Source of the DNA: Candidatus Latescibacterota bacterium
Lineage (GTDB): Bacteria; Latescibacterota; UBA2968; GCA-2709665
DNA: 64,000 nt
Assembly: GCA_965203805.1 (NCBI GenBank)
Contig: OZ241917.1
Span: 3,648,001-3,712,000 of the forward strand
Reading direction: 5' to 3'
The notes beneath the pieces were generated by a model. It saw only the letters and a program-made list of their open reading frames with translations, was not told where the DNA came from and ran no database searches. Made by a program: the position numbers and the translations under genes. Of this stretch, positions 3,678 through 53,797 are shown one piece after another; position 1 is the stretch's first letter, and each line of letters begins with the position of its first letter.

Positions 3678-5549
3678 TTATCCTCCCGGTCTGTAGGATC
3701 CAAAAGCGGAACGCAGCCTGTCCGATATCTCGCCGACCGTCGCACCGGCCAACCCTGCCGCCACGACCGCTTCCGTAATCGACCCCGCGCCCCGCGCCCG
3801 CCGTTCGATTTTGTCCAGCGCAGCCTGCGCGGCGTCGGAATCCCGCAGGCCCCGCGACCGCCTCAGGTCAAGCTTCTGCCTGTGTTCCGAGTCCTGTGTG
3901 GGCTGGAACGTCGAAACCGGCGTTTCCGGGTCTCCCTGAAACCGGTTCACCCCCACCACGACGGTCTCGCCGGACTCGATCTTCTTTTGCGCATCGTATG
4001 CCGAGTCCGCGATACAGGCCGCCGTAAAGCCGTTTGCGGCCGCCTCCCCGGCTCCCCCCTCCCGATCGACCGCTTCCAGTACGGCCAGGGCTTCCTCCTC
4101 CAGCGCATCGGTCATTTTTTCAACCGCGTACGACCCTCCCATGGGATCTACGGTATCCGGGATGCCGCTTTCGTAGGCCAGGATCTGCTGGGTACGTACC
4201 GCCAGCTGCGCCCCCGTGTCCGACGGCAGGCCCAACGCTTCATCGTACGCGTTGACGTGCAATGACTGGGCGCCGCCCAGAACGGCGGCCAGCGCCTGCA
4301 GCGTGGTCCGTGCGCAGTTGTTCATCGGCTGCTGGGCCGTGAGGGTCGAGCCCGCGGTCTGGGCATGGAATCTCAGGCGCCTGCAGCGCGGGTCATTCAC
4401 GCCAAGGCGTTCCCGGACGAGGCGGCTCCAGAGTCGCCGCGCGGCGCGGAATTTGGCGATTTCCTCCAGAAAATTGTTGTGAACGCCGTAAAAGAAGGAA
4501 AATTTCGGGAGGAACCGCTCCGGCTCGAGGCCTGCCGCGGTGGCGGCGTCGGCATACGACAGGGCGTGGGCGACCGTAAAGCCAAGCTCCTGTGCGGCGG
4601 TTGCGCCGGCCTCCCGCATGTGGTAACCGCTGACGCTGATTGGGTTCCACTTTGGCGCCTCCCTGAGACAATAGTCCATCAGATCCACCACCAGGCGCAT
4701 CGAGTCGGCAATCGGGAAGACATATGTTCCACGTGAAACATATTCCTTGAGAATATCATTCTGGACCGTGCCGGTAAGCGCCCGCGAAGGCAGTCCGCGT
4801 TTCTTTCCGAGGCCCGCGTAGAACGCGAACAGGATGCAGGCTGTCGCGTTGATCGTCATGGATGTGCTGATGCGGTCCAGCGGGATTCCATCGAACAGGG
4901 TATCCAGGTCCCAGAGCCCGTCTACCGCCACGCCCACCCTGCCAACCTCGCCGCCCGCGTTTGGATGGTCCGAGTCGTACCCCATCTGTGTGGGCAGGTC
5001 GAACGCCACGCTCAAGCCGGTCTGGCCCCGGGCAAGCAGATCGCGAAACCGGGCATTGGTCTCCGCGGGAGTGGAAAATCCCGCGTACTGGCGGAAGGTC
5101 CAGAGGCGGCCGCGATACATGGAGGGATAGGCGCCGCGGGTGAACGGGGGTTCGCCCGGGCGTCCGATCCGGTCCGGAGCGTCGCGGCCGCCTCCGTCTC
5201 CGCTGCCCCGTGCCCCCGTGGGATTTCCTTCGCTATCGACGCCGCCGTCGCACCTCGCCGCGCTTTCGGCGGGGTCGGCAAGCACTCCTGCCATCCGGTC
5301 GAACAGGCGCCTGGCCTCTGCCGAGGCGGCGCGCTGCCTGTAGGCCTGTAACAGCAGGGTTCCGGAGTCCAGGCCAAGGGCGGCCGCCAGGTCCAGGCAT
5401 CGCTTGTCTGAAGGAATTCGCTTTCCGCTCTCGATCTGTCCGATATAGGTGCCCCAGACGCCGATCCTTTCACCCAGCCCCTGCTGGCTGAACCGGCCCT
5501 GGCGAGCCTTCCTGATCAAATCGCCGAAAACCATCGCCGAAGCCTCCAT
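3678..5549 (-). CDS. XRE-family HTH fused to a methylmalonyl-CoA mutase large (substrate-binding) subunit; no B12-binding domain
   Basis: N-terminal FGDLIRKARQGRFSQQGLGERIGVWGTYIGQIESGKRIPS (Cro/C1 HTH), a Gly-rich linker, then PFTRG, RQYAGF, GLSVAFDLPTQMGYDSD, QNDILKEY, SGYHMREAG, HAQTAG. No DxHxxG motif. Start at 5549 or 5534. Confidence 0.88.
   Translation of the reverse strand: MEASAMVFGDLIRKARQGRFSQQGLGERIGVWGTYIGQIESGKRIPSDKRCLDLAAALGLDSGTLLLQAYRQRAASAEARRLFDRMAGVLADPAESAARCDGGVDSEGNPTGARGSGDGGGRDAPDRIGRPGEPPFTRGAYPSMYRGRLWTFRQYAGFSTPAETNARFRDLLARGQTGLSVAFDLPTQMGYDSDHPNAGGEVGRVGVAVDGLWDLDTLFDGIPLDRISTSMTINATACILFAFYAGLGKKRGLPSRALTGTVQNDILKEYVSRGTYVFPIADSMRLVVDLMDYCLREAPKWNPISVSGYHMREAGATAAQELGFTVAHALSYADAATAAGLEPERFLPKFSFFYGVHNNFLEEIAKFRAARRLWSRLVRERLGVNDPRCRRLRFHAQTAGSTLTAQQPMNNCARTTLQALAAVLGGAQSLHVNAYDEALGLPSDTGAQLAVRTQQILAYESGIPDTVDPMGGSYAVEKMTDALEEEALAVLEAVDREGGAGEAAANGFTAACIADSAYDAQKKIESGETVVVGVNRFQGDPETPVSTFQPTQDSEHRQKLDLRRSRGLRDSDAAQAALDKIERRARGAGSITEAVVAAGLAGATVGEISDRLRSAFGSYRPGG
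4725..4740. promoter_or_regulatory. parS: parS centromere-like site
   Basis: TGTTCCACGTGAAACA fits the ParB/Spo0J consensus TGTTNCACGTGAAACA; the palindrome extends to ATA...TAT (4722-4743). Lies inside the mutase gene. Confidence 0.8.
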
Positions 5550-5625
5550 TCGGGAATCGCGGCACCGGATAATGCGAACGCGACGCCGGGACCGGGTAAA
5601 CACACGCTTGTGTGTGTGCAGATCA

Positions 5626-5660
5626 AGTATAAAATACTGTTTTTAAATACGTTTATAAAA
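5626..5660. promoter_or_regulatory. AT-rich promoter region with two palindromes, candidate operator for the XRE-mutase operon
   Basis: AGTAT-AAA-ATACT (5626-5638) and TTTTAAATACGTTTATAAAA (5641-5660, 16/20 self-complementary), 80-110 bp upstream of the start. Confidence 0.45.
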
Positions 5661-5670
5661 CCTGAAACCG

Positions 5671-6105
5671 GTGAGACGTGAGACGCAAGACGGTAGATGA
5701 CGTCCTTGCACGATTGGTCATTGCTCTATGCCGCTGGTATGAAATGAAACCGCACAGGGCAGGCAATCTCTCACGTCTTACGTCTCCCCGCTCTTCAGGC
5801 ACTCACAGTATCTCACGTCTCACGTCTACCCTCTCACCGCCCTTAGGGAATTTGAGGAGATGTGGACGTTGAGTTTTATTCTTGGTTTTGATTCTAACTG
5901 ACGGCTGAATTCTGGTTTGTTGGGGCCTGCCTGCAGCGCCTGTCTGCGTGCGTACACGCACAGGCAGGCAGTACGCTACGCAGGCAGGCAACCCTTGTGG
6001 TTGCCCGCCTTTCGCGTGTTTCCGGGTTTCCTTTGTGTCTTTGTGTCTCCGTGTGAGCAGATTTTCGCTTCAAGCCGACTGCTGAACGCCGATGGCTGAA
6101 AGCTG
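5671..6105. repeat. Intergenic repeat mosaic 1
   Basis: GTGAGAC/TCTCACG heptamer runs, AGGGAATTTGAGGA (5845), nested hairpin inserts within a GGGCAACC-GGTTGCCC hairpin, CTTTGTGT octamers, GCTGA heptamers. Confidence 0.8.
5926..5988. repeat. Two nested mini hairpin inserts (outer 5926-5988, inner 5939-5968)
   Basis: CCTGCCTGCagcg[CCTGTCTGCgtgcgtacacgcaCAGGCAGG]cagtacgctacGCAGGCAGG; removing it restores GGGGCAACCCTTGTGGTTGCCC. Confidence 0.85.
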
Positions 6106-6109
6106 CCTT

Positions 6110-6967
6110 TCAACCCGAAACGACCGTATTCTCGAGCCGGCCGATGCCGTCGACTTCGCACACGACGCTGTCGCCAGCCTTGAGCCAGAGTTGCGGCTCC
6201 CGGGCCATTCCGACGCCCGGCGGCGTGCCCGTAAATATCAGGTCTCCCGGCTGGAGGGTGACAACCCGGGACAGGTAGGCGATCAGCTGGTCGACCTTGA
6301 AAATCAGTTGCGCGGTATTCGAGTCCTGTACGGTCTCGCCGTTCAGAATACAGCGAATATCCAGGTTATGGGGATCGCCCGCCTCGTCGGGGGTGACAAG
6401 TTCCGGGCCCAGCGGCGCGAAGGTCTCGAAGGTTTTGCCCAGCAGCCATTGGCCGCCGGGTTTTTCCAACTGAAAGTCCCGCGCGCTCACGTCGTGGCCC
6501 ACCGTATAGCCCGCGACGTGGCGCATCGCATCGGATTCGGGGATATCCTTTCCCGCCGTTCCGATGACAACAACCAGTTCGACCTCATAGTCGATGGAAC
6601 TGCTGATCGACGGCAGGCGGATCGCGTCGCCGGGTCCGATGATGGTGGAAGAGAACTTGGAAAACACCACGGGCTCGGATGGAATGGGCATATTGCTTTC
6701 CGCAGCATGGTCCGCGTAGTTCAGGCCGATGCAGAGGATCTTTTCCGGGTTCTGGATGGGCGCCACCACGCGGACGGCGCCGGTGTCGATGCCCTCGCCC
6801 CGCGCTGCCGCCGCTCCCGCCGCGGCCAGAGCGGCCGGCCCCGCCTCCAGCAGACCGACCATGTCCGACGGAATGCCGGGATCGACGCGGCTCACGTCCA
6901 CGATCGTGTCTCCCGACCGGACGCCCACGCGTCGCGATCCCTGGTGTTCGAAAGTGAGCAATCTCAT
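6110..6967 (-). CDS. Fumarylacetoacetate hydrolase family protein
   Basis: KILCIGLNYADH, DYEVEL, HDVSARD, GKTFETFAPLGP, GDLIFTGTPPGVG. Start moved to MRLLTF. Confidence 0.92.
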   Translation of the reverse strand: MRLLTFEHQGSRRVGVRSGDTIVDVSRVDPGIPSDMVGLLEAGPAALAAAGAAAARGEGIDTGAVRVVAPIQNPEKILCIGLNYADHAAESNMPIPSEPVVFSKFSSTIIGPGDAIRLPSISSSIDYEVELVVVIGTAGKDIPESDAMRHVAGYTVGHDVSARDFQLEKPGGQWLLGKTFETFAPLGPELVTPDEAGDPHNLDIRCILNGETVQDSNTAQLIFKVDQLIAYLSRVVTLQPGDLIFTGTPPGVGMAREPQLWLKAGDSVVCEVDGIGRLENTVVSG

Positions 6968-7130
6968 ATGAAGGTTACCTTTCCTGAACGGGATGACGTT
7001 GTCCTGCGGAACAGGGCGCGAAGGATAACATGCGGGCCGAAACCTGTCAAGGGATAACCGTCCGTTGGTAAAGTCCATGCGGGCTGACAGGCACGATGAG
7101 ACGGGCCGCATGCGGGTTCCGAACGATGAG

Positions 7131-7340
7131 TAATCCACGATGTTGAAAACTCGATCAAAATCGATGTGGAGAATTTAGCTATTGTTTTTATGTTGGTTAA
7201 ATGAAGCAATCCACAGAATTCCACCACCAATGGCTGAAGTCTGTGGAAAACATGTGGAAGAGTCCGGAGGCACTTCCACATGCGGTAAGAGGGTAGGCGT
7301 GAGACGGTAGAGGATAACGTTACCACAGTGTTTTCACGCT
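7131..7340. other. Candidate replication origin (oriC): cluster of DnaA-box-like 9-mers with an AT-rich stretch
   Basis: TAATCCACG 7131, TGTTGAAAA 7141, TGTGGAGAA 7165, CAATCCACA 7207, TGTGGAAAA 7242 (exact TTWTNCACA on the minus strand), TGTGGAAGA 7253, ACTTCCACA 7272, AGAGGATAA 7309, GTTACCACA 7319. AT-rich 7172-7205. parS is 2.4 kb away. Confidence 0.6.
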
Positions 7341-7399
7341 AACCGTGCCTGTTTCTCTACCGTTATCGTAACGACAAGAAAATCCATCGTGCACTCATA

Positions 7400-8000
7400 T
7401 CGTCTCCCGTCTCCCCGCCTTTAGGGACCTACCCCCTAACCCCCTTCCTGAGAGGAAGGGGGAACGGTGACGGATCGATGGACTAGGCATGCAAATGTGC
7501 CGGGTGGCGATTCGCTGTCAATCAGAGTATCTATAGATGACCGGCCCGCGGCGCCTGGTCTTACTCCCCCTCTCCCCGCGGGAGAGGGGGCCTGCCTGCC
7601 GGTGGTTTTTCGGCAGGCAGGGGGGAGAGGTCTGCGCGCCGATCGCCGGAAGATTTCGTCCGGCCATATCAGTGCCCCGTGGCCGCAGGTTATCATCTCC
7701 CGTCTACCGTCTCCCCTCTCACCGCCTTCAGGGAATTTGGGGAAAAGGGGATTTTGAATTAGGTTTTCGCTTTTGCTTCAAGCTGACGGCTGAATGCTGA
7801 CCGCTGATTGCTGCTTTTCGACGGCAGGGAATTTGGGGAGACGTGGAAGTTGAAGTTGATTTTCGGCTTTGATCCTTACTGACAGCTGTCGGTTGACTGC
7901 TCTGTTTCTCTTTGTGTCTTGGTGTCTTTGTGTGAGCTGATTGCCGTTTTTGATCTTTGCTGACGGCTGACTGCTGACTGCTGAGAGCTGGTTTCTTCTG
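7400..8000. repeat. Intergenic repeat mosaic 2
   Basis: CGTCTCC heptamers, CCCCCTTCC/GGAAGGGGG and CCCCCTCTCCC/GGGAGAGGGGG hairpins, mini insert at 7591-7621, AGGGAATTTGGGGA at 7730 and 7826, GCTGAnn heptamer runs, CTTTGTGT runs. Confidence 0.8.
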
Positions 8001-8177
8001 CTTCCCCACCGGCCCGTAAACCCTGTCATCCCGCGTCAACCGCTCCGTCCGCGCCGGTTCCGCGACCCAAATTTTCCCTTGCTCCCCTCCGGCGATTATT
8101 CTATATTTCCGCAAATCTGCGATGGGCGTTATCGCGCCCTGAAATGCGATAATCCGGGCAATGGAGAATGCTGGCTC

Positions 8178-8759
8178 GTGATTGAAAAGGTAAAGGACGA
8201 CGTCGCCGAACTGCTCGAACCCTCCACGCAGTTTCTGGTGAAAAAGCGGTTCCGGCCGAATGCGCTGACCCTGGTCGGGTTTCTCCTGAACCTGGTCGCG
8301 GCGCTGCTCTTCGGATTCGATTACATCCGGTGGGCCGGTCTTGTCGTGCTGCTCGCCGGCGTGTTCGATTTTCTGGATGGACAGGTGGCCCGCGTGGGGC
8401 GGAGCGAAACCACGTTCGGCGCGCTTCTGGACTCTACTGTAGACCGTTATTCAGAGATTTTCATCTGGTTCGGCATGGCGGTCAGCTTCATCAGGTCTGA
8501 CTCGCTGTGGACCACGTCCGCCGTGTTTTTCGCGCTTGCCGGCTCGTTGATGGTGAGCTATATCCGGGCGCGCGTCGAGGGTCTGGGCGAAGAATGCAAG
8601 GTCGGTTTCATGCAACGGCCGGAAAGGGTTATCGCCATTGGCGTGGGGGCGCTGGTGGGCGAAATCGGGCTTACGGTAGCGATCTGGGCCATTGCGTTTC
8701 TGGCCAACTATACCGCGTTGCACAGGGTTTTGTATTTCCGCAAGCGGTCCCGGGATTGA
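8178..8759 (+). CDS. CDP-alcohol phosphatidyltransferase family protein
   Basis: DFLDGQVAR...FGALLDSTVDRY signature; hydrophobic; GTG start after GGAGA. Confidence 0.9.
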   Translation: MIEKVKDDVAELLEPSTQFLVKKRFRPNALTLVGFLLNLVAALLFGFDYIRWAGLVVLLAGVFDFLDGQVARVGRSETTFGALLDSTVDRYSEIFIWFGMAVSFIRSDSLWTTSAVFFALAGSLMVSYIRARVEGLGEECKVGFMQRPERVIAIGVGALVGEIGLTVAIWAIAFLANYTALHRVLYFRKRSRD

Positions 8760-8817
8760 ACCGGTGGCGGGCAGGACTCGCCTGAACTGAAAGCAAGCCG
8801 GAGGAGCAGCAGGGAAG

Positions 8818-8843
8818 AAGGCGCACAAGGGTGCGCCTTTTTT
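8818..8843 (+). terminator. Rho-independent terminator
   Basis: AAGGCGCAC-aagg-GTGCGCCTT followed by a T run. Confidence 0.75.
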
Positions 8844-8979
8844 GTACGTATCTGCCAGCAGGAATCCGGAAGCGAATCGGTTATGTGTTATCTTCCGGAT
8901 TTTTTATATTCCCGCAGAACGGCGACGCGCCGAAACGGGTCGCCGGGGCGGGCGCCACAAAAAGCACAACGGCCGGACG

Positions 8980-9000
8980 CCTGTCTGCCGGGCAGGCAGG
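8980..9000. repeat. Mini hairpin insert (21 bp)
   Basis: CCTGTCTGCC-g-GGCAGGCAGG at the loop edge of GGCCGG-acg-CCGGCC. Confidence 0.75.
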
Positions 9001-9053
9001 CCGGCCGGCCGGATGGGCTTTCTCAACGGGCTGTTTGGGGATGGAGGCACGGG

Positions 9054-9917
9054 TTGGAGCCGCTGGACGAACAAACGAACCTCGCATTCTTTACGGACCT
9101 GGACGGGACGCTGCTGCAAAGCGATCGAAGGGCAAGCGCCAGGAGCCTTGATGCGCTGAAAACGCTGGGGAGAAAGAAAATCTGCAGGGTGGTGGTCACC
9201 GGCCGGTCGCATATGTCCGCAAGCACCGTCTTGCCCGATACCTTTCCGATCGATTATCTGATTACCTCGTCGGGCGTCGGCATATTCGATTTCCGGGATC
9301 AGACGCTGGTGGAATCCCACTCCCTTTCGAACGGCGTTGTGTGCCGCGTTACGGGATATCTCATCGACAGGGGATTCGACTTCATGGTTCACGCGCCGGT
9401 TCCGGAGAACCATACGTTCGAGTACTGGGAACAGAACGAAGACAATCCCGATTTCTTGCGACGGCGTCAAAACAACGCTGAACACTGTCGCCCCTTGAAT
9501 CCCGGCCGCCCGGTAAACGGCCGGGCCTCTCAATTTCTGGTGGTCTGTCCCGTAGAAGCGGACCCCTGGCGCACGCATAACGGGCTCTGTAACGACCTGA
9601 AAGACCTGTCGGTGATCCGGACCACGTCGCCTTCGGACCACCGGTCCACGTGGTTCGAGATTTTTCCGCGACAGGTATCCAAGGCCCGGTCCGCCGCGCG
9701 GTTGTGCGAGCGGCTGGGTGCGGATGCGCGGCGTTCCGCGGCTGTGGGCAACGACTACAACGACCTGGACATGTTACAGTGGTGCGGTTTTCCGTATGTC
9801 GTCCGGAACGCGCCGGAGCCCTTGAGAAAACGGTTCCCAGTGGTTTCCAACCACAACGCGGACGGGTTTTCCGAGGCGGTCCGGCGGTGGCTCGACGAGA
9901 TTGAGACGACCGCATAG
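9054..9917 (+). CDS. Cof-type HAD-superfamily hydrolase
   Basis: DLDGT motif I, VTGRS motif II, SK...GNDYND motifs III/IV; TTG start after GGAGG. Confidence 0.88.
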   Translation: MEPLDEQTNLAFFTDLDGTLLQSDRRASARSLDALKTLGRKKICRVVVTGRSHMSASTVLPDTFPIDYLITSSGVGIFDFRDQTLVESHSLSNGVVCRVTGYLIDRGFDFMVHAPVPENHTFEYWEQNEDNPDFLRRRQNNAEHCRPLNPGRPVNGRASQFLVVCPVEADPWRTHNGLCNDLKDLSVIRTTSPSDHRSTWFEIFPRQVSKARSAARLCERLGADARRSAAVGNDYNDLDMLQWCGFPYVVRNAPEPLRKRFPVVSNHNADGFSEAVRRWLDEIETTA

Positions 9918-9930
9918 AAGAGGACAAACC

Positions 9931-12264
9931 ATGCCTGCAGGACTTACCGAAGCCGACCTGGCCGCCGCATTGCCGGATGTGACCGCCACGCTGCGCCTGC
10001 CCGGCCTGATCGACAGCGCCGCCATCTATCGCGACCGGTGGGGCATCCCCCACATCCGGGCGGAGAACGAGCACGATCTCTTCTTCGCCCAGGGTTTCGC
10101 CACGGCCCAGGACCGGCTCTGGCATATGGACTATGACCGGCGCCGGGCGCTGGGGCGTTGGGCGGAAATCGCCGGCCCGGACGGCGTGGATCAGGACCGG
10201 CTGTTGCGAACAGCGGGAATGGGACGCACGGCGCGGCTGGATTACGAGGCGGCCGGTGCGGAGGCGAGGGCGATGGTGGATGCGTATACGGCCGGCGTGA
10301 ACGCGTTCATGGAAACGACGCCGGCGTACCCGGTCGAATATAAGCTTCTGGACGGTACGCCCGAATCCTGGGAGAACTGGCACTGCATTGCCGTCTACAA
10401 GATGCGCAATACGCTGCTGGGGACGTTCGAGCCGAAACTCTTCCGAACGCGTCTGGCGCTCACCATCGGCCCCGAGAACGCGGCGCGTCTGATCAAGGGG
10501 TATCCCGGCGGCCACCTGCTCACCGTGCCCCCCGGCGAGGTCTACCAGGGGCCTGGTGTCGACGGCCTGGAGGAACTCAGCGGGGCCCTGGAGGACGTCA
10601 ACTGGCTGAAAGAGACGGATGCCGGATCCAATGCCTGGTCGATCTCCGGCGAGCTGACCCGGTCCGGATTGCCGCTGATGGGAGGAGACTCGCACCGTGC
10701 TCTGGACACGCCCAGCGTCTACTATCAGGCCCATCTCTCCTGTCCCGACCTTTCGATTGTCGGCTCCTCGGTACCCGGGATGCCCGGGATCCTGCACTTC
10801 TGTCACAACGCGCACGTGGGCTGGGGGATGACCTACGGCAACGCCGACACCCAGGACCTGTTCGTGGAGCGGTTCCGGGAGCGGGACGGCGGGCGGGAGT
10901 ATCAATTCAGGGAGACGTGGAGGCAGGCCGAAGTCCTGCACGAGACCATCGCGGTCCGGAACGCGGCGCCGGTGGAGATCGAAGTGACCCTCACGCATCA
11001 CGGCCCTGTCATCGCGGGAGATCCCGCGGCGGGTTACGGCATTGCAATCAGCGATCCCGGCCTGATACAGGGCACGCCATGGCTGGATGCCGCACGCGAA
11101 GCGATGCGCGCGACCACCGTCCATGAACTGCACGATGCATTCAGGAACTGGACGGACCGGGTCAACAACTACGCGGTCGTGGACGTCCGGGGCAATTTCG
11201 GATATCTGCACGAGGGAAAGATCCCCATTCGCACGGAGGCCAACGGCTGGCGGGCCGTGCCGGGGTGGACCGGGGAATACGAGTGGCAGGGGTATATCCC
11301 TCACGACGACCTGCCGCGGGCGATCTGTCCGCGGGCCGGGTACGCCGTGACGTGCAACCAGCGCGTAGCCGGATATGACTACCCGTACTACGTGGGTCTG
11401 AATTTCAGCCCGGAATATCGCGCCAGGCGGCTTCAACTGAATATACTGGACCTGAATCCGGGGGGGGCGGTGGTGGACGATATGGCGCGGATGCACGCCG
11501 ACCGGACCTCCATTCCGGCCGAAATCTTCACCGAGGCGCTCCTTGGGATACAGCCTCGGGACACGGCGTCCGAGCGGGCGCTGGCGCTCCTGCGCGAGTG
11601 GGATTATCGCATGGACCGGGACCTCGCGCAGCCGACGATTTACAGCCAGACCCGCCTGTGCGCCACCCGGGTGCTGGCGGAGCATCTCCTGGGCGACATA
11701 GCGGCTCCGGCGCTCGAGGGGGCTTCAGGAGCGGAAGCGCATATCCGTCTGATCGTTCTGGAGATGACCCTGGGGATCGAGAACGGCGACGAATCGATGT
11801 TACCGGACGGGCGCACCTGGGGCGATCTGTTGGCGGAGAGCCTGAAGCAGGCGGTCGCGGACCTCGAGGACCGGCTTGGTGAGGACATGACGGATTGGCG
11901 GTGGGGCCGCGTCCACCATACCCGGCCGAGACACCCGCTCTCAACGGTTTTTCCGGAATGCGCAAGGCTTCTGGATCCGCCCGGCCTGCCAACGCACGGA
12001 GACGGAGACGTGCCGCTTGCCGGCGGCTATGACGTGAGTGAACCCTTTGTTGCGACGGGGTTGTCGGTCAACCGGTACATTCACGATCCGTCGGACTGGA
12101 ACAACTCCCGGTGGATCGTGCCGCTTGGGGCCTCGGGGCATCCCGGCAGCGCTCATTATGCGGACCAGGCGCAACTCTGGGCCGACGTGGGGTATATCCC
12201 GCAACTGTGGGACTGGGATACGATTGTCTCCGAGGCGGAAACACGACAGGAATTGAATCCGTAG
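9931..12264 (+). CDS. Penicillin acylase family protein (Ntn hydrolase, peptidase S45)
   Basis: RDRWGIPHI, AQGFATAQDRLWHMD, GSNAW autocleavage site, GASGHPGSAHYADQ. No obvious signal peptide. Confidence 0.92.
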   Translation: MPAGLTEADLAAALPDVTATLRLPGLIDSAAIYRDRWGIPHIRAENEHDLFFAQGFATAQDRLWHMDYDRRRALGRWAEIAGPDGVDQDRLLRTAGMGRTARLDYEAAGAEARAMVDAYTAGVNAFMETTPAYPVEYKLLDGTPESWENWHCIAVYKMRNTLLGTFEPKLFRTRLALTIGPENAARLIKGYPGGHLLTVPPGEVYQGPGVDGLEELSGALEDVNWLKETDAGSNAWSISGELTRSGLPLMGGDSHRALDTPSVYYQAHLSCPDLSIVGSSVPGMPGILHFCHNAHVGWGMTYGNADTQDLFVERFRERDGGREYQFRETWRQAEVLHETIAVRNAAPVEIEVTLTHHGPVIAGDPAAGYGIAISDPGLIQGTPWLDAAREAMRATTVHELHDAFRNWTDRVNNYAVVDVRGNFGYLHEGKIPIRTEANGWRAVPGWTGEYEWQGYIPHDDLPRAICPRAGYAVTCNQRVAGYDYPYYVGLNFSPEYRARRLQLNILDLNPGGAVVDDMARMHADRTSIPAEIFTEALLGIQPRDTASERALALLREWDYRMDRDLAQPTIYSQTRLCATRVLAEHLLGDIAAPALEGASGAEAHIRLIVLEMTLGIENGDESMLPDGRTWGDLLAESLKQAVADLEDRLGEDMTDWRWGRVHHTRPRHPLSTVFPECARLLDPPGLPTHGDGDVPLAGGYDVSEPFVATGLSVNRYIHDPSDWNNSRWIVPLGASGHPGSAHYADQAQLWADVGYIPQLWDWDTIVSEAETRQELNP

Positions 12265-12409
12265 TCGGCCGGCGTCACCAACATCCGGGGGATCCCGCTT
12301 ACGGCTCGAGGATGTCCGCTAAGCGCCTGGTAGCGCGCGTATATTGCACATCGACGCCTGACTGCTGGTAGTCGTTTCCTGACTAAGTGCCTATTTTTTC
12401 TTTTTTTAT

Positions 12410-13035
12410 GTCCTTTTTCTTGTACGCCCAAGAAAAAGGACCAAAAAGAACGGCGCCTGCCTGCCAAAGCGTCACTGGCAGGCGCAGGCAGGCCGCTCGG
12501 CGCCTGTCTGCGTGCGTGAGACAGCACGCACAGGCAGGCGGGGCCGGTTTTTCCGTGAACCACCTCAGCGGCGCAATTGGAATCTGGGTGCCCTGTCACC
12601 GAAACAGCCCCGACCGAACTACGTTGCTGGACGGATTGGCACGGAAAAACCCCCAGCCACACCACAGTACGCTTGATGGGGCCTCACAAAAAACCGTACG
12701 CGGATGTTCCTGCGCGATGAAGCGTTTACAGACCCCCCAACACCGCCACCAACCTACTGCCTATCCCCTTCCCGAAGGAAGGGGGAAGTGTGATCGCGTG
12801 AAGACATTTCTTACTGCTCCCCCTCTCCCTTTGGGAGAGGGGGCCGGGGGGAGAGGTTTGGGTTTCATCGGTTGCCGCCACGTGACGGCGCTGACGTCAA
12901 CGGGTTTGGCTTTTGTTTCAAGCTGATTGCTGAGAGCTGATCGCTGAATGCTGCTTCCCGCCGGAGGCAAGGAATTTGGGGAAAAGGGGTTTTTGGATTT
13001 GATTTTCGTCCATTGCCTTTAGCTGTCAGCTGTCA
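12410..13035. repeat. Intergenic repeat mosaic 3 with two mini hairpin inserts (12456-12492, 12503-12538)
   Basis: TCCTTTTTCTTG...CAAGAAAAAGGA hairpin, two CCTG(C/T)CTGC...CAGGCAGG units, CCCCTTCC/GGAAGGGG and CCCCCTCTCCC/GGGAGAGGGGG hairpins, GCTGA heptamers, AAGGAATTTGGGGA (12969). Confidence 0.8.
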
Positions 13036-13068
13036 TTGCCGACAACTACCCGCGAGAGGAGATTCGAA

Positions 13069-13404
13069 ATGGTACAAATCGTAAAACCGGACCAGAGGGA
13101 CATGAAGCTGTACGACGCGCCGGGGGCCAGGGTACAGGTGTCCGACCCCATTCTGGGAAAGGACGACTGTCTCGCGGCGGGATTCACGGAATATCTGGAA
13201 CCGAGCCGTCTGGAGTGGACATTCGACTACAATGAGGTCTTCTTCATGCTGGAAGGCGCGCTGGAAGTTCACGCGGAGGGGCAGGAGCCGGTGTCTTTCG
13301 AGGTTGGCGATCTGGGCTATATCGAAAAGGACACGACCACCGTAATCACGGTACCGGAGGGCGCGCTGCTGCTGCACGTTACCCAGCCGGCGTGGCGGGA
13401 ATGA
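13069..13404 (+). CDS. Cupin protein, EutQ-like
   Basis: LAAGFTEY...LEWTFDYNEVFFMLEGALEV...GDLGYI; GAGGAG SD. Confidence 0.75.
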   Translation: MVQIVKPDQRDMKLYDAPGARVQVSDPILGKDDCLAAGFTEYLEPSRLEWTFDYNEVFFMLEGALEVHAEGQEPVSFEVGDLGYIEKDTTTVITVPEGALLLHVTQPAWRE

Positions 13405-13429
13405 AGCAGGACGGGAGGCTGCCGGAAGT

Positions 13430-14491
13430 TCAATTGAACGCGGGCGCGACGTGTTCCGAGAACATGCGCAGAGACTTGCAGACCAGGTCGGGATGCAGGT
13501 CGCCGATGCGGGTCCACCCCATAAAGTTCTGCAGTCCCGTGTGTTTCCGGATCCAGCTGATTTTGTCGGCGGCAAAATCGGGATCCCCCACGATGGCGTG
13601 TTCCGCCAGGATTTCGTCGAAGCTGATGTTGGAAAACTTCTGTTTCAGCTCCTGGTAGAATTCCATCTGTCCGGGTGGCGCGATTTCGGGCGGGGGCGCG
13701 ATCACCTCGGCCAGCAGGGTGCGGAAGTACCACATCAGTTGATCGTGACATTCCTCGCGGGCCTTTTCGGTGGTTTCGGCAACGTACAGGAACCTCGCCA
13801 GGGGGAAGTCCAGTTTGCCCGACATCCCGCACGCATCGGCCGTCTTGTGGTACGCCTCGTAGAGTTCGAACACCTGCTCGTAGGGATGCAGGAACGAAGT
13901 CAGGACGTTATAGCCGTTCTTGATGACCCATTCGTAAGTTGAAGGACTCACCGCCGCCACGTAAACCGGCGGGTGCGGCTGTTGTACGGGTTTCGGGATC
14001 ACGTTGACCTTCCGGACCTTGTGGAACCTGCCGTCGTATTCCACGGGACCCGTCCAGGCCTTCAGGATGATCTCCAGTTCTTCCTGAAAGCGGTCGCGGC
14101 TTTCCTCCAGGTCGATTCCCCAGTTGTGAAACTCCTCGAGCTGATAGCCGCGTCCCACGCCGAAGAGGAGCCTTCCCCTGGACATGATATCCACGGTGGC
14201 GAAGTCTTCCGCCACGATGACCGGGTTGTGGAAGGGCAGCACGACAACCGCGGTGCCGATTTTGATGCGTTCGGTAATGGCCGAGGCGTACGCGGCCATG
14301 GTATGGATGGACGGGGTGATCGAGTAATAATTCGCGCCTGGCGCTTTGTGGTCGAAGTGGTGTTCGGCCAGCCAGATGGCGTCCCAGCCGGTCTCGTCCA
14401 TGAGCTTGAACTGTTCGAATGCTTCGTGGTAGACTTGCGCGTGATCTTTGCCGGGCGGGGTTTCCAGCAGATAGAACTGGCCGAATTGCAT
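13430..14491 (-). CDS. LLM-class (luciferase-like) flavin-dependent oxidoreductase
   Basis: WLAEHHF, TERIKIGTAV, AEDFATVDIMSRGRLLFGVGRGY, PKPVQQPHPP. Confidence 0.92.
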   Translation of the reverse strand: MQFGQFYLLETPPGKDHAQVYHEAFEQFKLMDETGWDAIWLAEHHFDHKAPGANYYSITPSIHTMAAYASAITERIKIGTAVVVLPFHNPVIVAEDFATVDIMSRGRLLFGVGRGYQLEEFHNWGIDLEESRDRFQEELEIILKAWTGPVEYDGRFHKVRKVNVIPKPVQQPHPPVYVAAVSPSTYEWVIKNGYNVLTSFLHPYEQVFELYEAYHKTADACGMSGKLDFPLARFLYVAETTEKAREECHDQLMWYFRTLLAEVIAPPPEIAPPGQMEFYQELKQKFSNISFDEILAEHAIVGDPDFAADKISWIRKHTGLQNFMGWTRIGDLHPDLVCKSLRMFSEHVAPAFN

Positions 14492-31855: not shown

Positions 31856-32000
31856 CGGTGCGGGACCCACCGAATCAGAAAGCGGTAAATATACCGTAAA
31901 ACCCATCGCAGGGCAAAAAAGATGCGCCGAAAATGGGCGAGAGAAAGCTGTTTGCCGAGCGGTTTCTATCGATATCTGTGCATCGGAAGGTACAATTTAA

Positions 32001-33310
32001 GGAACCTCTGATCAACCAGAGGGAATGAGCAAGTTGTAACTTATGGGTCGTTTCGGAGGCTGTTTATGTTGAGAGGGTCGTCATCTTTCGGGTTTGCACG
32101 GGTGATTCCGGCCCCGGATGCGCTCGGTGCCGGCCATTTTGGCCGCCAGCGTCCGAATTGGAGGCACGGGTGCCTATGTAGTAGCCAGTTCCTGACGTGC
32201 CATATGGAAGTTAGCCAAGGCAAACAAGGTGAACAGATGCGCCGTATTCTTCGCCAGACCGCGATACCTGACCTTTCGGTAGCCCCACAGGTGTTTGATG
32301 ATCCCAAAGGGATGTTCCCTGTCTGCGTGCGTGAGACAGCACGCACAGGCAGGGACCCGTGCGCGCGTGCGATTGCTCTTCTTGTTGAACGAAACATCCG
32401 CGCAGTTGAGCCGCTTGCCCCGGCGGGCCTTGCGAAGCACTCGCCATTCCACGTCGTTGGCTTCGGCCCGTTCTTTTCGCGTCTGATCCGCATAGGCCTT
32501 GTCGCCGTAGATGGTCTTTTCTTTTCCGTGCAGACAGGCATCCATCGCCTGCGAATCATGCACCGAAGCGGGGGTGGTCACCACACTGTGCACCCGTCCC
32601 TTCACATCCGCGCCCACGTGCGCCTTCATGCCGAAATGCCACGTGTTGCCCTTCTTCGTGCTGGCCATTTCAGGATCCCGTTTCCGATCCTTGTTCTTCG
32701 TCGAAGAAGGCGCGTGAATGATCGTGGCATCCACGATCGTGCCTTCGTTCACGATCAATCCCCGCCTGGACAAGTAGCGCTTCGTTTGCCGAAACAACGC
32801 TTCCGTCAACCCATGGTGCTCCAGAAAGTGACGGAATTTGCAGATCGTCGTCTCATCAGGTACGCCGTTGATGTTCACACCCGCAAAGCCCTGCCTGCAG
32901 CAGGCAGGGACGCATCGACTCCACGTCGTAGAGACTGTCTTCCATTCCCGGATCGCTCAATCCATACCATTGTTGCATAAAGTAGATACGCAGCATCACC
33001 TCCGCACCGATCGGACGACCTGCCTGCGCCGACTCGGCAGGCAGGCGACCGTTGCCAGGTTTCGGATACTTCCTCTCAATCGATTTAAGCAGTATCTCCC
33101 ACGGCAACACCGCATCCATCTCTTTCAGAAAACGTTCCCTGCGCGTCTGCTTCTTCTTCGTCCTGTACGCCAGATCCGAAAAACTCATTTGTTTCATCCC
33201 TGGGCCCCTCGTTCTATGTCGATCCATCAGAAATCACAACACGACGGCTCACGCTCCAATTCTACGACTTTCTGCATGGCGTGCCAATAGGTAACTTAAT
33301 CAGAGCTTCC
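32001..33310 (-). mobile_element. IS5-family insertion sequence
   Basis: Terminal IRs GGAACCTCTGATCAA / TTAATCAGAGCTTCC (13/15), flanked by a TTAA target duplication (31997-32000, 33311-33314). Confidence 0.93.
32174..33197 (-). pseudogene. IS5 transposase disrupted by three mini hairpin inserts (36, 19 and 27 bp)
   Basis: TRRERFL, PDETTI, IVDAT, WHFGMKAH, YGDKAY, EHPF, KVRYRGL. Removing 82 bp of inserts gives a continuous 942-bp ORF. Confidence 0.92.
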
Positions 33311-33539
33311 TTAAGATATGGAAGATATTGAGGGTCACGCTTGTTTGTCTTGACATCATGCTTAGGGTGATAATTTCGCGTGGATTCGGGTTGACAACGT
33401 CACTTCCGGGCCGTACGATAACAACGGGTGTTGCGTTTTGCGACATGCGCAACGCCATGAATCGCCTCGATGGATTGCCGTGACTGTTACAAACCGACAG
33501 GAGGTCCGAAAGTCTCCCGTCAATCCGCATTGATCCACT

Positions 33540-41099: not shown

Positions 41100-44000
41100 T
41101 TACTCTGAATCCGAACTGCCGAAGCGGGTACGGATAAATTCCCTGGTACTTTCTGCCGGGAGTTTCACGGTTCCCGGGCCGCTGCGGACAAAAAAATCAC
41201 CGCCGTCTTCCTTTTCGAGACCCTTCCACGAGAGGAACACCGGTTCCGGGCTCCGCTGGCAACTCACCACGCAGACTTCCTTGCCGTCGACAATCTGCAC
41301 TTCCGGATCGATGCAGGTGCCGGCGCGATCGCCGAGACCGTTTCGCACAACCTGTGCAAGATGGAGCATAAACTTGTCTCGCGTGTCGAGCCGGTCGTGT
41401 TCTATGCCAACGGCCGTACCGTCGTCGGCAACGCCGATCAGAAGGTCTCCGCCCTCCGTGTTGAGGAAGGCAGCGATCGTCTTGATCGCCGCGTGGGTGA
41501 TGCGTTTGTCGTCTTTCCGGTCTTCTTTCAGGTTCCAGCGCAGCGTGGACTTGAACTCCAGGGTCTTCGACTCGCCCTGTTTGATGAGGTCCTCGGCGCT
41601 GCGGTGAGTGCGGACATATTGATCGAACAGAATGTTCTTGATGACTTCGCCAAACGCACGGTCATCGGTGATGCGCTTGTAGAGATCGAAGTTGGAATCT
41701 ACGATCTCCTGGATAACCTCCTCAACCTTGTGATCGAAGGTCAATCGGACATTCTCGCGGGTATTCACGCGCGCCGCTGCGCCAAGCGCCGCGTCGTCCG
41801 AGAGCCTGTCCATCATCTGGCCGAGCGTGGCGCGGTGCTCTGGGCCGACACCAGCCCCGAAGCGTTCGTTCAGTTCGGCGATGATTCGCGACAGGGTCTC
41901 CATTTCTTCTTCGTGTAACCCGTGTGTGTCCTTTGTGCCGACCGGGTCGAGATTCGTAGTCCCTCGCTGGAGATTGATTCGGCCTTTACGGGTTTCCTGA
42001 ATTCGGTACGACTCCATGTCGATGTTCTGCTGAACCTCAAGCGGCAGCACGGCCCGGTCCATTGGCAACAGGCGGCGCAGGTGTCTCGAAAAGACGTACA
42101 GCTTCTCCAGATCAACGTCGTTGAACGGTAGTATCTGCGCGAGAAACGCGTAGAGCCGCACGTAGTCAACGAGCTGGCCCCGGAAGTCTATCTTTTCGGG
42201 TTCATCCAGGGCCGAAAAACGGTCGACAATGGGCTTGAGCACGCCATGAAGCCGGTCCTGTTTGGCGTCGCTGTCGAAGAAGACTTTGGCGAATTCGTCC
42301 ACGTCGCCCTGATCGTATACCGGAAAGTCGGCCAGGCGCGTCTGGACCTCGTAGAGCCGGTTGGGATCGGTCGCCTCCGAGAGCAGGGTCGTTTCGAAAT
42401 AGGGCTCGAAGGACTCTTTAATGTCATCGGCATCATTGGCGAAATCAAGTACCATTGTGCCGTCTTTTCCCGGCTCTGTGCGGTTAATCCTGGAAAGCGT
42501 CTGCACCGCGTTCACGCCGCCCAGTTTCTTGTCGACGTACATGGTGTGCAGAAGCGGCTGGTCGAAACCGGTCTGAAATTTGTTCGCACAGATCAGGAAT
42601 CGATATTCCAGCGCCTTGAACGTCCTGGCGGTCTGCGCCTCGGAAACGCCGTTCATGCCCGGTTCGGTATAAGATTGGCCGCCGTCCTCGACAGTGCCGG
42701 AGAACGCAACCAACGCTTTAAACGGATAGCCCTGCTCGGTGAGATAATTCTCCACTGCGAGTTTGAACCGCACGGCGTGCAATCGGGAGCGGGTGACGAT
42801 CATCGCCTTCGCCTTGCCGTCGACCTGGCTTTGCACTTGGTCGGCGAAGTGGTCGACCATGATTCGGACCTTCTGTTCAATGGCATGGGGGTGCAGATCG
42901 ACAAATGATCTGAGCAGATACGTCGCCTTGTTCCTGTCGTAGCGAGGATCGTCTTCCACCGTCTTCAACAGCCGCCAATAGGACTTGTACGTTGTGTAGT
43001 TCTCCAGGACGTCGAGGATGAATCCCTCTTCGATCGCCTGGCGCATGCTGTATAGATGGAACGGTTCGAACGATCCGTCCGGACGGCGTGTGCCGAACAG
43101 CTCCAGCGTCTTGGATTTCGGGGTCGCGGTGAAGGCAAAGGTCGAAAGATTCGGGAGGCGCCCGCGCTTCTCCATTTCCTCAAGGATCGCGTTTTCAAGT
43201 TCCTCTTCCGGTGTTTCGGCACCTGATTCCTCGTCCTCTGCTTCCGTGAGAGAATCCGAAGCCAGTACCGCCTTCAGGCTCTTCGTACTCTCCCCGGACT
43301 GCGACGAATGCGCTTCGTCGACAATCAGGGCGAACCGCTTGCCGGGCAACTGACCGATTTCCTCAGCGATCACCGGGAATTTTTGCAACGTGGTGACGAT
43401 AATTGTCTTCCCGGATTCAAGCGCTTCTTTGAGCTGGCGCGAGGTCGTATCGATATTTTCCACAACCCCCAGGGTCTGCTCGAACTGACGCATTGCGCCC
43501 TGGAGCGCGCGGTCGAGCACGCGCCGGTCCGTGATCACCACAATCGAATCGAAAACGCGTTTGTCTTCGGCATCGTGCAACGTGGACAACTGGTGGGCGA
43601 GCCAGGCGATGGTAAACGTCTTGCCGCTTCCGGCCGAGTGCTGGATCAGATAGCGCTGTCCCGCACCTGTCCGTCGAGCATTGGAAATGAGCTGGCGCAC
43701 ACAATCGAGTTGCTGGTAGCGCGGAAAAACGAGCGTCTTCTTGCCCGTCTTACGACCGTTCTCGTCTTCCTCCTCGACTTCGTGGACGAACTGCCGCACC
43801 AGGTCCAGCACGCTGTCGCGCGACCAGGTCTCCTCCCAGAGGTACGACGTGGCATAGCCGGATTGCGTGGGCGGAACCGGCGGGTTCCCCGCACCGCGGT
43901 TGTTGCCCCGGTTAAAGGGAAGGAAGCGTGTCTTGACACCGGCAAGGCGGGTGGTGACGTAGACCAGTTCCGGATCGACCGCGAAGTGCGCCAGGCAGCG

Positions 44001-44633
44001 ACCATAGGCCAACAACGGCTCGCCGCGGGGGTCGCGGTCCGTCTTGTACTGGCGGATTGCGTCCTCGACGGACTGACCGCTGAGCAGGTTCTTGAGTTCG
44101 GCGGTGAATATGGGGATGCCGTTCAGAAACAGGACCAGATCCAGGCTCTTCTCGTTCTTCGTGCTGTAGCGTACCTGGCGGACAACCGTGAAAAAGTTGG
44201 CCATATACAGTTGGCGCGTCTCCTCGTTGAGCCCGCTGGCCGGCCGGAAGTAAGCCAGCCGAAACGTGCAGCCCATATCCTTAATACCGTTTCGAAACAC
44301 GTGGAGAACGCCACGGCGATCGATTTCAGACGCCAGGCGCCTGAGAAAACGATCCCTGACCTCAGCGCCGTAGTGATGGGACAGCTTCTTCCATTCCTTA
44401 GGCTGCGTCGCAACGATGAAATTGTGAACGTCTCTGGACAGAAGGCACAGGCTGCGGTCGTAGTCCTCGGGCGTTCCCTTGAAGTAACCGCCGGGTTCCA
44501 TTCCCTCGCCGCCGACAGGCAACCGGCCTTCACGGACCCCGGCTGGAAGACCTCCTGATCCATCCTTGCCCTGGCCGAGCAGTGCCGCCTCGATGGCGTC
44601 TTCGAAGGCTTTTTCAGAAACAACGGGACTCAT
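41100..44633 (-). CDS. hsdR: Type I restriction enzyme R subunit with a C-terminal Schlafen/AlbA_2-like domain
   Basis: DLVLFLNGIP...ELKN nuclease, QHSAGSGKT, DEAH, FTATPK, FQTGFDQP, QTLSRINR; tail GESKTLEFKSTLRW...AAFLNTEGGDLLIGVADDG. Confidence 0.93.
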   Translation of the reverse strand: MSPVVSEKAFEDAIEAALLGQGKDGSGGLPAGVREGRLPVGGEGMEPGGYFKGTPEDYDRSLCLLSRDVHNFIVATQPKEWKKLSHHYGAEVRDRFLRRLASEIDRRGVLHVFRNGIKDMGCTFRLAYFRPASGLNEETRQLYMANFFTVVRQVRYSTKNEKSLDLVLFLNGIPIFTAELKNLLSGQSVEDAIRQYKTDRDPRGEPLLAYGRCLAHFAVDPELVYVTTRLAGVKTRFLPFNRGNNRGAGNPPVPPTQSGYATSYLWEETWSRDSVLDLVRQFVHEVEEEDENGRKTGKKTLVFPRYQQLDCVRQLISNARRTGAGQRYLIQHSAGSGKTFTIAWLAHQLSTLHDAEDKRVFDSIVVITDRRVLDRALQGAMRQFEQTLGVVENIDTTSRQLKEALESGKTIIVTTLQKFPVIAEEIGQLPGKRFALIVDEAHSSQSGESTKSLKAVLASDSLTEAEDEESGAETPEEELENAILEEMEKRGRLPNLSTFAFTATPKSKTLELFGTRRPDGSFEPFHLYSMRQAIEEGFILDVLENYTTYKSYWRLLKTVEDDPRYDRNKATYLLRSFVDLHPHAIEQKVRIMVDHFADQVQSQVDGKAKAMIVTRSRLHAVRFKLAVENYLTEQGYPFKALVAFSGTVEDGGQSYTEPGMNGVSEAQTARTFKALEYRFLICANKFQTGFDQPLLHTMYVDKKLGGVNAVQTLSRINRTEPGKDGTMVLDFANDADDIKESFEPYFETTLLSEATDPNRLYEVQTRLADFPVYDQGDVDEFAKVFFDSDAKQDRLHGVLKPIVDRFSALDEPEKIDFRGQLVDYVRLYAFLAQILPFNDVDLEKLYVFSRHLRRLLPMDRAVLPLEVQQNIDMESYRIQETRKGRINLQRGTTNLDPVGTKDTHGLHEEEMETLSRIIAELNERFGAGVGPEHRATLGQMMDRLSDDAALGAAARVNTRENVRLTFDHKVEEVIQEIVDSNFDLYKRITDDRAFGEVIKNILFDQYVRTHRSAEDLIKQGESKTLEFKSTLRWNLKEDRKDDKRITHAAIKTIAAFLNTEGGDLLIGVADDGTAVGIEHDRLDTRDKFMLHLAQVVRNGLGDRAGTCIDPEVQIVDGKEVCVVSCQRSPEPVFLSWKGLEKEDGGDFFVRSGPGTVKLPAESTREFIRTRFGSSDSE

Positions 44634-53642: not shown

Positions 53643-53711
53643 GAAAATCGCCCTTGAATATATCGTATTCTTGCTGCAGTTCGTCTGGTCGAGAGCTTGT
53701 GAGACGTCAAA

Positions 53712-53739
53712 TGTCGGCAATAAATCGTAACTGCCGACA
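53712..53739. promoter_or_regulatory. Palindromic site TGTCGGCA-N12-TGCCGACA (downstream of abiEii)
   Basis: Perfect 8-bp inverted repeat; same arms and spacing as 55342-55369. Confidence 0.7.
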
Positions 53740-53797
53740 ATTGCTGGCAGTATGTTTCCGCTATCAGCGGAGCGACCCTGTATTCCGCCATGCATCC

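Follow-up and report, generated by a model that had tools for sequence, protein, structure and literature searches.

The 64,000-nt stretch of DNA analyzed here (the window) covers positions 3,648,001-3,712,000 of contig OZ241917.1 of a Candidatus Latescibacterota bacterium, an uncultured marine bacterium whose genome (G000) consists of one contig of 5,865,457 bp with 59% G+C. On the measure of its methylmalonyl-CoA mutase (80% amino-acid identity), its nearest named relative is a Candidatus Latescibacterota MAG. The window carries several copies of a hairpin unit of 19-41 bp, and these units very probably represent a genuinely mobile family of DNA. They constitute a single hairpin family that is clearly defined and recently active: a unit is either there in full or missing in full, its boundaries are blunt and exact, and the target is not duplicated. 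Their size of 19-41 bases places them among the smallest mobile-looking DNA known. Coordinates given without a genome label are positions in the window, and strands are given where assigned.

Copies, empty sites and fold of the units

The first-pass annotation of the window had listed six copies of the unit between 5926 and 12538, had proposed repeated independent insertion from several templates, and had suggested comparing orthologous regions, clustering the cores genome-wide and building a logo of the target sites. Direct reading of the sequence found every one of the six copies at the coordinates claimed, all of them in intergenic DNA. The first two form a nested pair, in which an outer 33-mer (5926-5988, split as 5926-5938 and 5969-5988, with one mismatch to a family sequence present in five copies) is interrupted at AGCG|CAG by an inner 30-mer (5939-5968); together they split a host hairpin repeat, GGGG|CAACC-CTTGT-GGTTGCCC, on the plus strand at 5922..6006. 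The 31-mer unit at 7591-7621, with an 11-bp stem and a 9-nt loop, lies within a larger repeat, GGAGAGGGGG-unit-GGGGAGAGGTC, and the 21-mer unit at 8980-9000, just ahead of where a HAD-hydrolase gene probably begins, splits GGCCGG-ACG-CCGGCC. The last two units, separated by 10 nt and of different core types, share a plus-strand host repeat at 12435..12653 that is 87% identical to the non-coding tail of an IS110-family gene (IS, insertion sequence): a 37-mer on the plus strand (12456-12492) at GAACGGCG|CCGCTC and a 36-mer on the minus strand (12503-12538) at CCGCTCGGCG|CGGGGCC. The latter is identical to the copy in an IS5-family element described below, the claimed 36/36 identity with 32318-32353 having been verified. 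One core type alone of this pair recurs in other copies of the host repeat.

The closest relatives, G012 (93% identity) and G001 (90-95%), show synteny across 5300-13500. At the site orthologous to 5926, both relatives read GTTTGTTGG|GGCAACCCTTGTGGTTGCCC; the whole 63 bp of the nested pair is absent and the hairpin is unbroken. Deletion of the nested pair in silico gives back the same intact hairpin, as had been predicted. G000 itself has six intact copies of this host hairpin and two more (3509317 and 5655650) with a unit at the equivalent position. After the penicillin-amidase gene, G012 has the same host repeat without the 12456 and 12503 units (GAACGGCG|CCGCTC...). Empty alleles are thus seen at 5926 in G001 and G012 and at 12456 and 12503 in G012. 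Removal of the 8980 copy also gives back GGCCGG-ACG-CCGGCC by reading of the sequence, as claimed; the relatives' sequence is too diverged there to show a clean empty allele, and the site is spanned by one sequencing-run contig with just five gap letters. Contigs from four sequencing runs placed on 5300-13500 are short and end at repeats; the contig joints that bypass units (12457->12538 and 12501->12538) may derive from paralogous copies of the host repeat.

Across the genome, the same units recur in many settings. The strict pattern CCTGYCTGC-N1-30-GCAGRCAGG has five matches in the window and none in each of 100 dinucleotide shuffles; it does not catch the nested pair or the 12503/32318 type, which has ACAGGCAGG as its end. 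A looser expression applied to the 5.87 Mb yielded 234 units of the form CCTG[C/T]CTG...CAG[G/A]CAGG, with 104 distinct sequences. These span 19-74 bp with composites included and have modes at 33 and 31, the commonest lengths being 33 (63 units), 31 (49), 27 (15), 19 (12), 30 (12), 36 (10) and 37 (10). The genome-wide list of cores comprises several core families that are mutually nested, and nesting reaches three levels, for example a 33-mer in a 30/36-type unit in a 33-mer. Long open frames rich in G+C at third codon positions (GC3) contain 45 of the 234 units, chiefly at frame edges or in IS genes. No master array of units was found in the genome; over 1.5 kb, the density of units is highest in IS elements and nested piles.

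The joined flanks of 89 of the 234 units align gap-free to another location in the genome, in many cases with 95-100% identity along 60-80 bp. Paralogous sites include eight that are empty for the 12503 unit and three host-repeat copies that are fully empty at the 12456 position. Comparison of 50-nt flanks distinguishes 112 unit contexts in the genome; one 33-mer with 12 identical copies occupies at least five unrelated flank contexts, and the GAACGGCG|CCGCTC position is occupied by a 33-mer in 11 copies, with a 37- or 41-mer in its place in other copies. One core in unrelated contexts, several cores at one site, and empty paralogous, orthologous and IS copies together bear out the proposal of repeated independent insertion from several templates.

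Each unit is a single imperfect hairpin with fixed arms of 8-9 nt, 5'-CCTG[C/T]CTG(C)...(G)CAG[G/A]CAGG-3', and a variable inner stem and loop. Units that can be oriented have a common design: the fixed ends pair into an outer stem of 8-9 bp, inside which stand a 4-6 bp inner stem and a loop of 3-9 nt, and the 3' arm usually also bears a 2-nt CG bulge. In a set of 30 distinct 33-mers from the source genome, its relatives and phage contigs, the inner-stem positions pair in 128 of 150 cells, against 43-73 with shifted partners, and two of the inner-stem pairs exchange C-G and A-T. The end combinations among the 234 units are C..G (177), C..A (33), T..G (24) and T..A (0), the T variant never being compensated. 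An Rfam scan of 5000-14000 gave only matches far under the gathering scores.

Target sites, carriers and distribution

Insertion favors a G|C step. The base preceding the unit (-1) is G in 75 of the 112 contexts and the base following it (+1) is C in 82; among units oriented by their bulge, the corresponding counts are 42 and 35 of 52. These two positions are the sole signal in the target-site logo. Five of the six window junctions are G|C, in agreement with the first-pass annotation, the exception being the G|G junction of the 7591 copy (read from the sequence). At the IS-borne sites the junction reads C|G or A|C, which shows that the preference is not absolute. A model of two-base GC duplication or crossover was rejected, as it fits about half of the junctions but the C|G junctions of the IS rule it out.

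A further suggestion, that insertion favors DNA able to form secondary structure, found no support as a general rule: 91 rebuilt empty 60-mers have a mean folding energy of -8.30 kcal/mol, against -8.29 kcal/mol for 1000 random genomic G|C sites (one-sided Mann-Whitney p = 0.45; the control sites were drawn from the whole genome including coding DNA, and the shuffles preserved mononucleotide content only). What did stand is that certain hairpin repeats are hot spots. REP-B, a hairpin repeat (GGGG|CAGACATTCCTGTCTGCC) of the repetitive extragenic palindromic (REP) type, is filled in 9 of its 32 copies, at GGGG|CAGACA and with several core types, and further hot spots are the GGGCAACC hairpin and the loop side of the REP beside a RAYT gene. 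The landing sites are repeatedly other repeats, namely REP hairpins, IS elements, the IS110-family tail repeat and the units themselves.

The most precise junctions come from an IS5-family insertion sequence on the minus strand at 32000..33313, which contains DUF772 and DDE_Tnp_1 domains. The element has five copies of 99.8-100% identity, the other four in G000 lying at about 1.309, 1.513, 2.631 and 5.652 Mb, and each copy carries a 36-mer, a 19-mer and a 27-mer. The 36-mer (32318..32353) is inside the transposase frame and in frame with it, at the junction TTC|GAC. The 19-mer (32890..32908), which consists of 9-nt arms and a 1-nt center, cuts the transposase frame into two open reading frames (ORFs) at AGC|G, and the 27-mer (33019..33045) is in frame within the N-terminal ORF. 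Among related IS copies from other genomes (77-83% identity), the site of the 36-mer is empty in G002, G013 and G003 and filled in G007; for both the 19-mer and the 27-mer, G007, G002 and G013 have the empty site. Since TTC|GAC and AGC|G permit no sliding of the boundary, the insert is exactly CCTG...CAGG, without target duplication. The break caused by the 19-mer lies in the DUF772 domain, and related IS copies without the 19-mer lack this break; trans help, frameshifting and bypass are possibilities for the amplification of the element after this break.

Blunt insertion without duplication excludes ordinary DDE-type transposition. It can hardly be maintained, therefore, that the units are miniature inverted-repeat transposable elements (MITEs) of a DDE-type insertion sequence with the same terminal inverted repeats. 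Such an origin would agree with the perfect 8-9 nt inverted repeats at the unit ends and with the frequency of units within and beside IS elements. However, the unambiguous junctions lack a target duplication, the units are far smaller than known MITEs, and a search of 740 orphan half-sites in G000 revealed neither a parent IS nor any long parent repeat, only unit composites or unrelated repeats beginning at such ends.

The units multiply in two ways, by new insertion and by passive copying with a carrier repeat or IS. All 29 copies of the commonest 31-mer are identical and occupy one place of one larger repeat, clustered at 3.245-3.471 Mb, and the 7591 window copy belongs to this passenger type. 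The same larger repeat exists without the unit in 27 copies, in which the site reads TTGG (12), CCGG (10), CTGG (3) or CAGG (2). The first-pass annotation had recognized that its proposal would fail if the units proved to be fixed internal parts of one larger repeat; this description applies to the 31-mer subfamily and not to the family as a whole, and unit-free copies of the repeat exist. Just 50 of the 234 units, at most two per 20 kb, have single-copy flanks on both sides, and much of the unit copy number is therefore passive.

The cluster that hosts the 31-mer (G000:C1:3245340-3470728, 225 kb) contains about 40 copies of a ~120-bp repeat at a spacing of 0.2-2.5 kb; its blocks share one orientation, with flips near 3.33 and 3.46 Mb. 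An integron attC array was considered for this cluster. The protein that best matches the integron-integrase model is in this cluster; it is classed as XerD (361 bits, cut-off 329.6) and stays under the IntI cut-off, and because the recombinase in the cluster is XerD the integron reading was dropped. The IS110-family transposase gene is single in the genome (G000:C1:4837763-4839357; L168 1432-3030). A ~450-bp repeat follows it directly, and a dozen or more further sites, the window among them, have this repeat with no transposase; it may be a non-coding IS110-family tail that spreads alone. The IS110-family enzyme itself was rejected as the mover of the units, being present in a single copy and having a type of targeting that does not match the weak G|C target.

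Such carriers raise the question of whether the units move at all. They could instead be fixed parts of larger repeats, with the differences among copies produced by precise palindrome deletion and gene conversion. The 31-mer type fixed in one repeat, the small number of units with single-copy flanks and the same three units in all five IS copies argue in this direction, and palindromes are deletion-prone. However, one and the same unit sequence recurs in numerous unrelated contexts, among them single-copy intergenic DNA and the coding sequence of IS elements and phages, and deletion is unable to create such placements. Two of the IS-borne units have flanks without a common direct repeat by which slippage could be guided, and units are nested in units. 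The unrelated contexts, the nesting and the lack of slippage repeats contradict immobility as a full explanation, and we regard it as very improbable.

The distribution of the units was examined in 41 genomes, with counts given per strand. The highest numbers occur in G001 (208), G000 (165), G015 (133), G016 (124) and G011 (81), followed by G007 (40), G024 (32) and G008 (27); the other relatives have 0-15, many close ones 0-3. G015 and G016 belong to other genera and G024 to another family. A control with the reversed pattern gave no match in 40 of the 41 genomes and one in the remaining genome. Among 151 sampled genomes of the phylum, counts of at least nine are confined to one family and G024. 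The 36-mer of the 12503 site is 100% identical in G007, G008, G011 and G015, and core types are common to several genera.

Units also occur in phages. Among the first 120 matching stretches in IMG/VR, 17 carry at least two units, and at least 20 units have a CCG...CGGCG architecture. Those unit-bearing contigs that were annotated proved to be real phages, with genes for portal, capsid, Mom, integrase and lysozyme proteins, and the G+C content of unit-bearing phage contigs ranges from 37 to 68%. Some of the phage units lie within portal, capsid-fusion and other large genes or at their ends (L214 1030-1384; L242 11109-11141; L204 9723-9755), and homologous phage genes have a unit at a shared site with differing cores. 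Neither the GenBank phage collection nor the PLSDB plasmid collection contains a match for the 36-mer.

Elsewhere in the window, intergenic tandem repeats of 7 nt with the form GCTGANN (for example GCTGACG GCTGAAT GCTGACC GCTGATT) are found at 7760-8000 and 5880-5915. Defense-type genes lie at 41100-44723 and 49737-53963; they encode a fusion of a type I restriction R subunit with a Schlafen/AlbA_2 domain, and a protein of 1408 aa that contains the PIN domain of the TPR-GreAB-C-PIN system.

Candidate mechanisms of movement

As a full explanation, we lean towards non-autonomous, ultra-small mobile hairpins of 19-41 bp. It is proposed that the unit is recognized as a folded single strand and that a structure-specific enzyme encoded elsewhere cuts and rejoins it in trans. 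An HUH/Y1 transposase of the RAYT type would be the best available candidate for this activity, and unit-bearing phages may carry units between hosts. That a Y1/RAYT-type (HUH) enzyme does move the units is put forward tentatively, as a possibility about which we are doubtful. G000 has one intact-looking RAYT-like gene, encoding 201 aa, which reaches the Y1_Tnp cut-off and in which the HVH motif is visible; it is located in a defense island (G000:C1:4533512-4534114; L009, L091), within an array of GTAG-tagged hairpins, CGAGGGCA-GGGA-TGCCCTCG. The six genomes with a close orthologue of this gene have 14-208 units, and most genomes without it have 0-15.

A number of points weigh against this proposal, in addition to the few single-copy flanks already mentioned. 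The direction of change at each site, gain as opposed to precise loss, comes from parsimony. The association with RAYT is weak, because related genomes are non-independent samples, and a close RAYT orthologue is lacking in G015 (133 units), G007 (40) and G024 (32). All six RAYT-like orthologues are flanked by another REP (CGAGGGCA-N3-4-TGCCCTCG) and not by the units; a second RAYT group is flanked by its own REP in G002, G005, G006 and at one of two G019 loci, and at the one G012 locus examined a third group likewise stands beside a REP of its own. The REPs that flank RAYT genes of the clade have the GTAG tag, whereas the units run from CCTG to CAGG and have neither the GTAG nor the CGTC tag of REP/REPIN elements. 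Units are absent at 19 of the 20 Y1 loci scanned in relatives, and the numbers of Y1 genes and units do not correlate among the 41 genomes. Oriented units show no replication-arm bias (18:16 and 11:7, with origin and terminus placed roughly from GC skew). Finally, no cognate enzyme was found among the RAYT, Y1, reverse transcriptase, IS110 and TnpB candidates.

Two further features deserve mention beside these candidates. REP-B is a second REP family, GGCAGACA-GGAA/TTCC-TGTCTGCC, which flanks a RAYT group in relatives (L145, L146 and L148 in G005, G006 and G002, respectively). This RAYT group was not found in G000 by a RAYT protein query or a Y1_Tnp family search, and the 32 REP-B copies are kept there. 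The REP-B arms are T-variant unit ends in reversed order (inside-out) and resemble an end-to-end junction of units; REP-B came from a search for the end motif, so the match is a lead and not evidence. The second (G000:C1:4546926-4550681; L103 14926-18681) is a 1252-aa frame with DUF1156, a D12-type methyltransferase and an internal Y1_Tnp domain, directly before which stands a 27-bp unit; similar frames of 1200-1440 aa exist in G008, G011 and G016.

A route through RNA, in which the hairpins are transcribed, copied back into DNA and inserted, seems improbable to us. It would fit the lack of target duplication at the unit junctions and the covariation of the hairpin fold, and the T-variant end always faces G (57 units are T..G or the complement C..A, and T..A is 0 of 234), a pair that is tolerated as G-U in RNA. 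The lack of flanking duplications is used as an argument for RNA in the case of Allomyces in a passage of PMC2800124. However, the uncompensated mismatch could equally come from a master copy, and no strand-specific feature was found in the units. The genome has just one reverse transcriptase gene (G000:C1:1678996-1680561; L167), and a protein query of 40 relatives found a homologue in G016 only and none in the unit-rich G001, G011 and G015. The two proteins share 96% identity across two genera (G016:C1:679236-680801), and since the query did not find the gene in the other 39 relatives, a recent transfer of the reverse transcriptase is suggested.

The lack of a matching enzyme leads to another explanation, in which a previously unknown enzyme, or general host replication or repair acting on extruded hairpins, moves the units with no known transposase family involved. 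The candidates tested (three RAYT groups, IS200-type Y1, reverse transcriptase and the IS110-family gene) are unmatched, a search of the genome for TnpB was negative, none of the long repeats begins at the unit ends, and the range of 37 to 68% G+C among the phage contigs suggests a widely available activity. This is an argument from absence that covers few gene families, and the fixed ends of 8-9 nt and the fixed bulge point to a sequence-specific protein rather than to generic repair; we therefore consider such an activity rather unlikely. There is a similarly small chance, in our view, that the units are self-sufficient recognition modules for an undescribed or host activity, spread without a known transposase family and borne between genera by phages. 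If true, they would be the smallest mobile DNA known, with a minimal unit of 19 bp, and the five-copy IS5-family element would be explained despite its frame-breaking 19-mer, for example by bypass or removal of the hairpin at expression.

Relation to known small repeats

The REP/REPIN elements with their RAYT (TnpA-REP) transposases are described in passages of PMC3116915 and PMC3733652 as short imperfect palindromes, chiefly intergenic, with tens to hundreds of copies and a patchy presence among relatives; a passage of PMC3733652 also places REPs within other palindromes and within reading frames. The units resemble them in being short imperfect palindromes of high copy number that are mostly extragenic, patchy among relatives, and in some cases inside palindromes or in frame within genes. 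In addition to the missing tag, they differ in that no RAYT gene is flanked by units, though the clade has RAYTs with their own REPs. The units look like single hairpins down to 19 bp rather than doublets, and they combine many core families on one end pair with self-nesting up to three deep.

The SDR elements of Nostoc, the subject of Elhai et al. in 2008, reportedly nest in themselves and share fold more than sequence. An RNA route has been suggested for these cyanobacterial elements, and no enzyme is known for them. Like SDR elements, which are about 20-30 nt, the units are very small and exactly inserted in other repeats, including their own copies. Unlike them, the units belong to a phylum other than that of the heterocyst-forming cyanobacteria (this distinction is made by phylum), have fixed ends with the core alone varying, and directly show orthologous empty sites and phage copies. 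Exact insertion of SDR5 within HIP1 is described in a passage of PMC4390886, and SDR elements of Nostoc and relatives are also mentioned in parts of PMC3116915 and PMC2884548.

As with the palindromic elements of Rickettsia, 27-, 33- and 36-mers are in frame in transposase and phage genes. The Rickettsia elements are 100-150 bp. The units are much shorter, and one of them is a frame-breaking 19-mer in an IS that still reached five copies. A passage of PMC3733652 describes the Rickettsia elements as palindromic inserts tolerated in frame within protein genes. Mitochondrial GC clusters and hairpin elements are, according to a passage of PMC2800124, small, GC-rich, intergenic and variable among close relatives, with no known enzyme; the same source reports that the double-hairpin elements of Allomyces lack flanking duplications, with an RNA route suggested, and that yeast GC clusters act like DNA transposons. 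The units, too, are small GC-rich hairpins that invade intergenic DNA and, as in Allomyces, produce no duplications, whereas the mitochondrial elements are organellar and their sequences unrelated to the units. Members of the IS200/IS605 family and their miniatures cause no target duplication, have hairpin ends that are read as single strands, and insert 3' of a short fixed motif of 4-5 nt, with an orientation linked to the lagging strand. The units share the lack of target duplication. They differ in that the whole unit is one hairpin, the G|C target is weak, and no partner Y1 gene was found; the motif consists of G at -1 (42/52) with few A at -2 and -3, and there is no arm bias with a rough GC-skew origin.

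A full-text literature search with the 9-mer of the unit gave only unrelated primer-like matches among the matches listed. No description of the family was found in the literature on small dispersed repeats, Latescibacteria repeats and mobile GC clusters, a search that did not extend to supplements or to Elhai 2008. The units thus behave like REP and cyanobacterial SDR elements, yet fail the tag and RAYT tests for REP and the duplication and parent tests for MITEs. Clean evidence for the movement of units so small is rare, and the mechanism is unknown for most small palindromic families. The present family offers exact blunt ends, a minimal unit of 19 bp, a common fold, copy numbers from 0 to about 200 in close relatives, and copies in phage genes, which together make the search for the mobilizing enzyme a tractable comparative and biochemical problem. 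The units reshape other mobile DNA, including REPs, the IS5-family element and the IS110-family tail repeat, and add short peptide segments to proteins, and they thereby contribute to small-scale variation in the genomes of uncultured symbiont-like bacteria.

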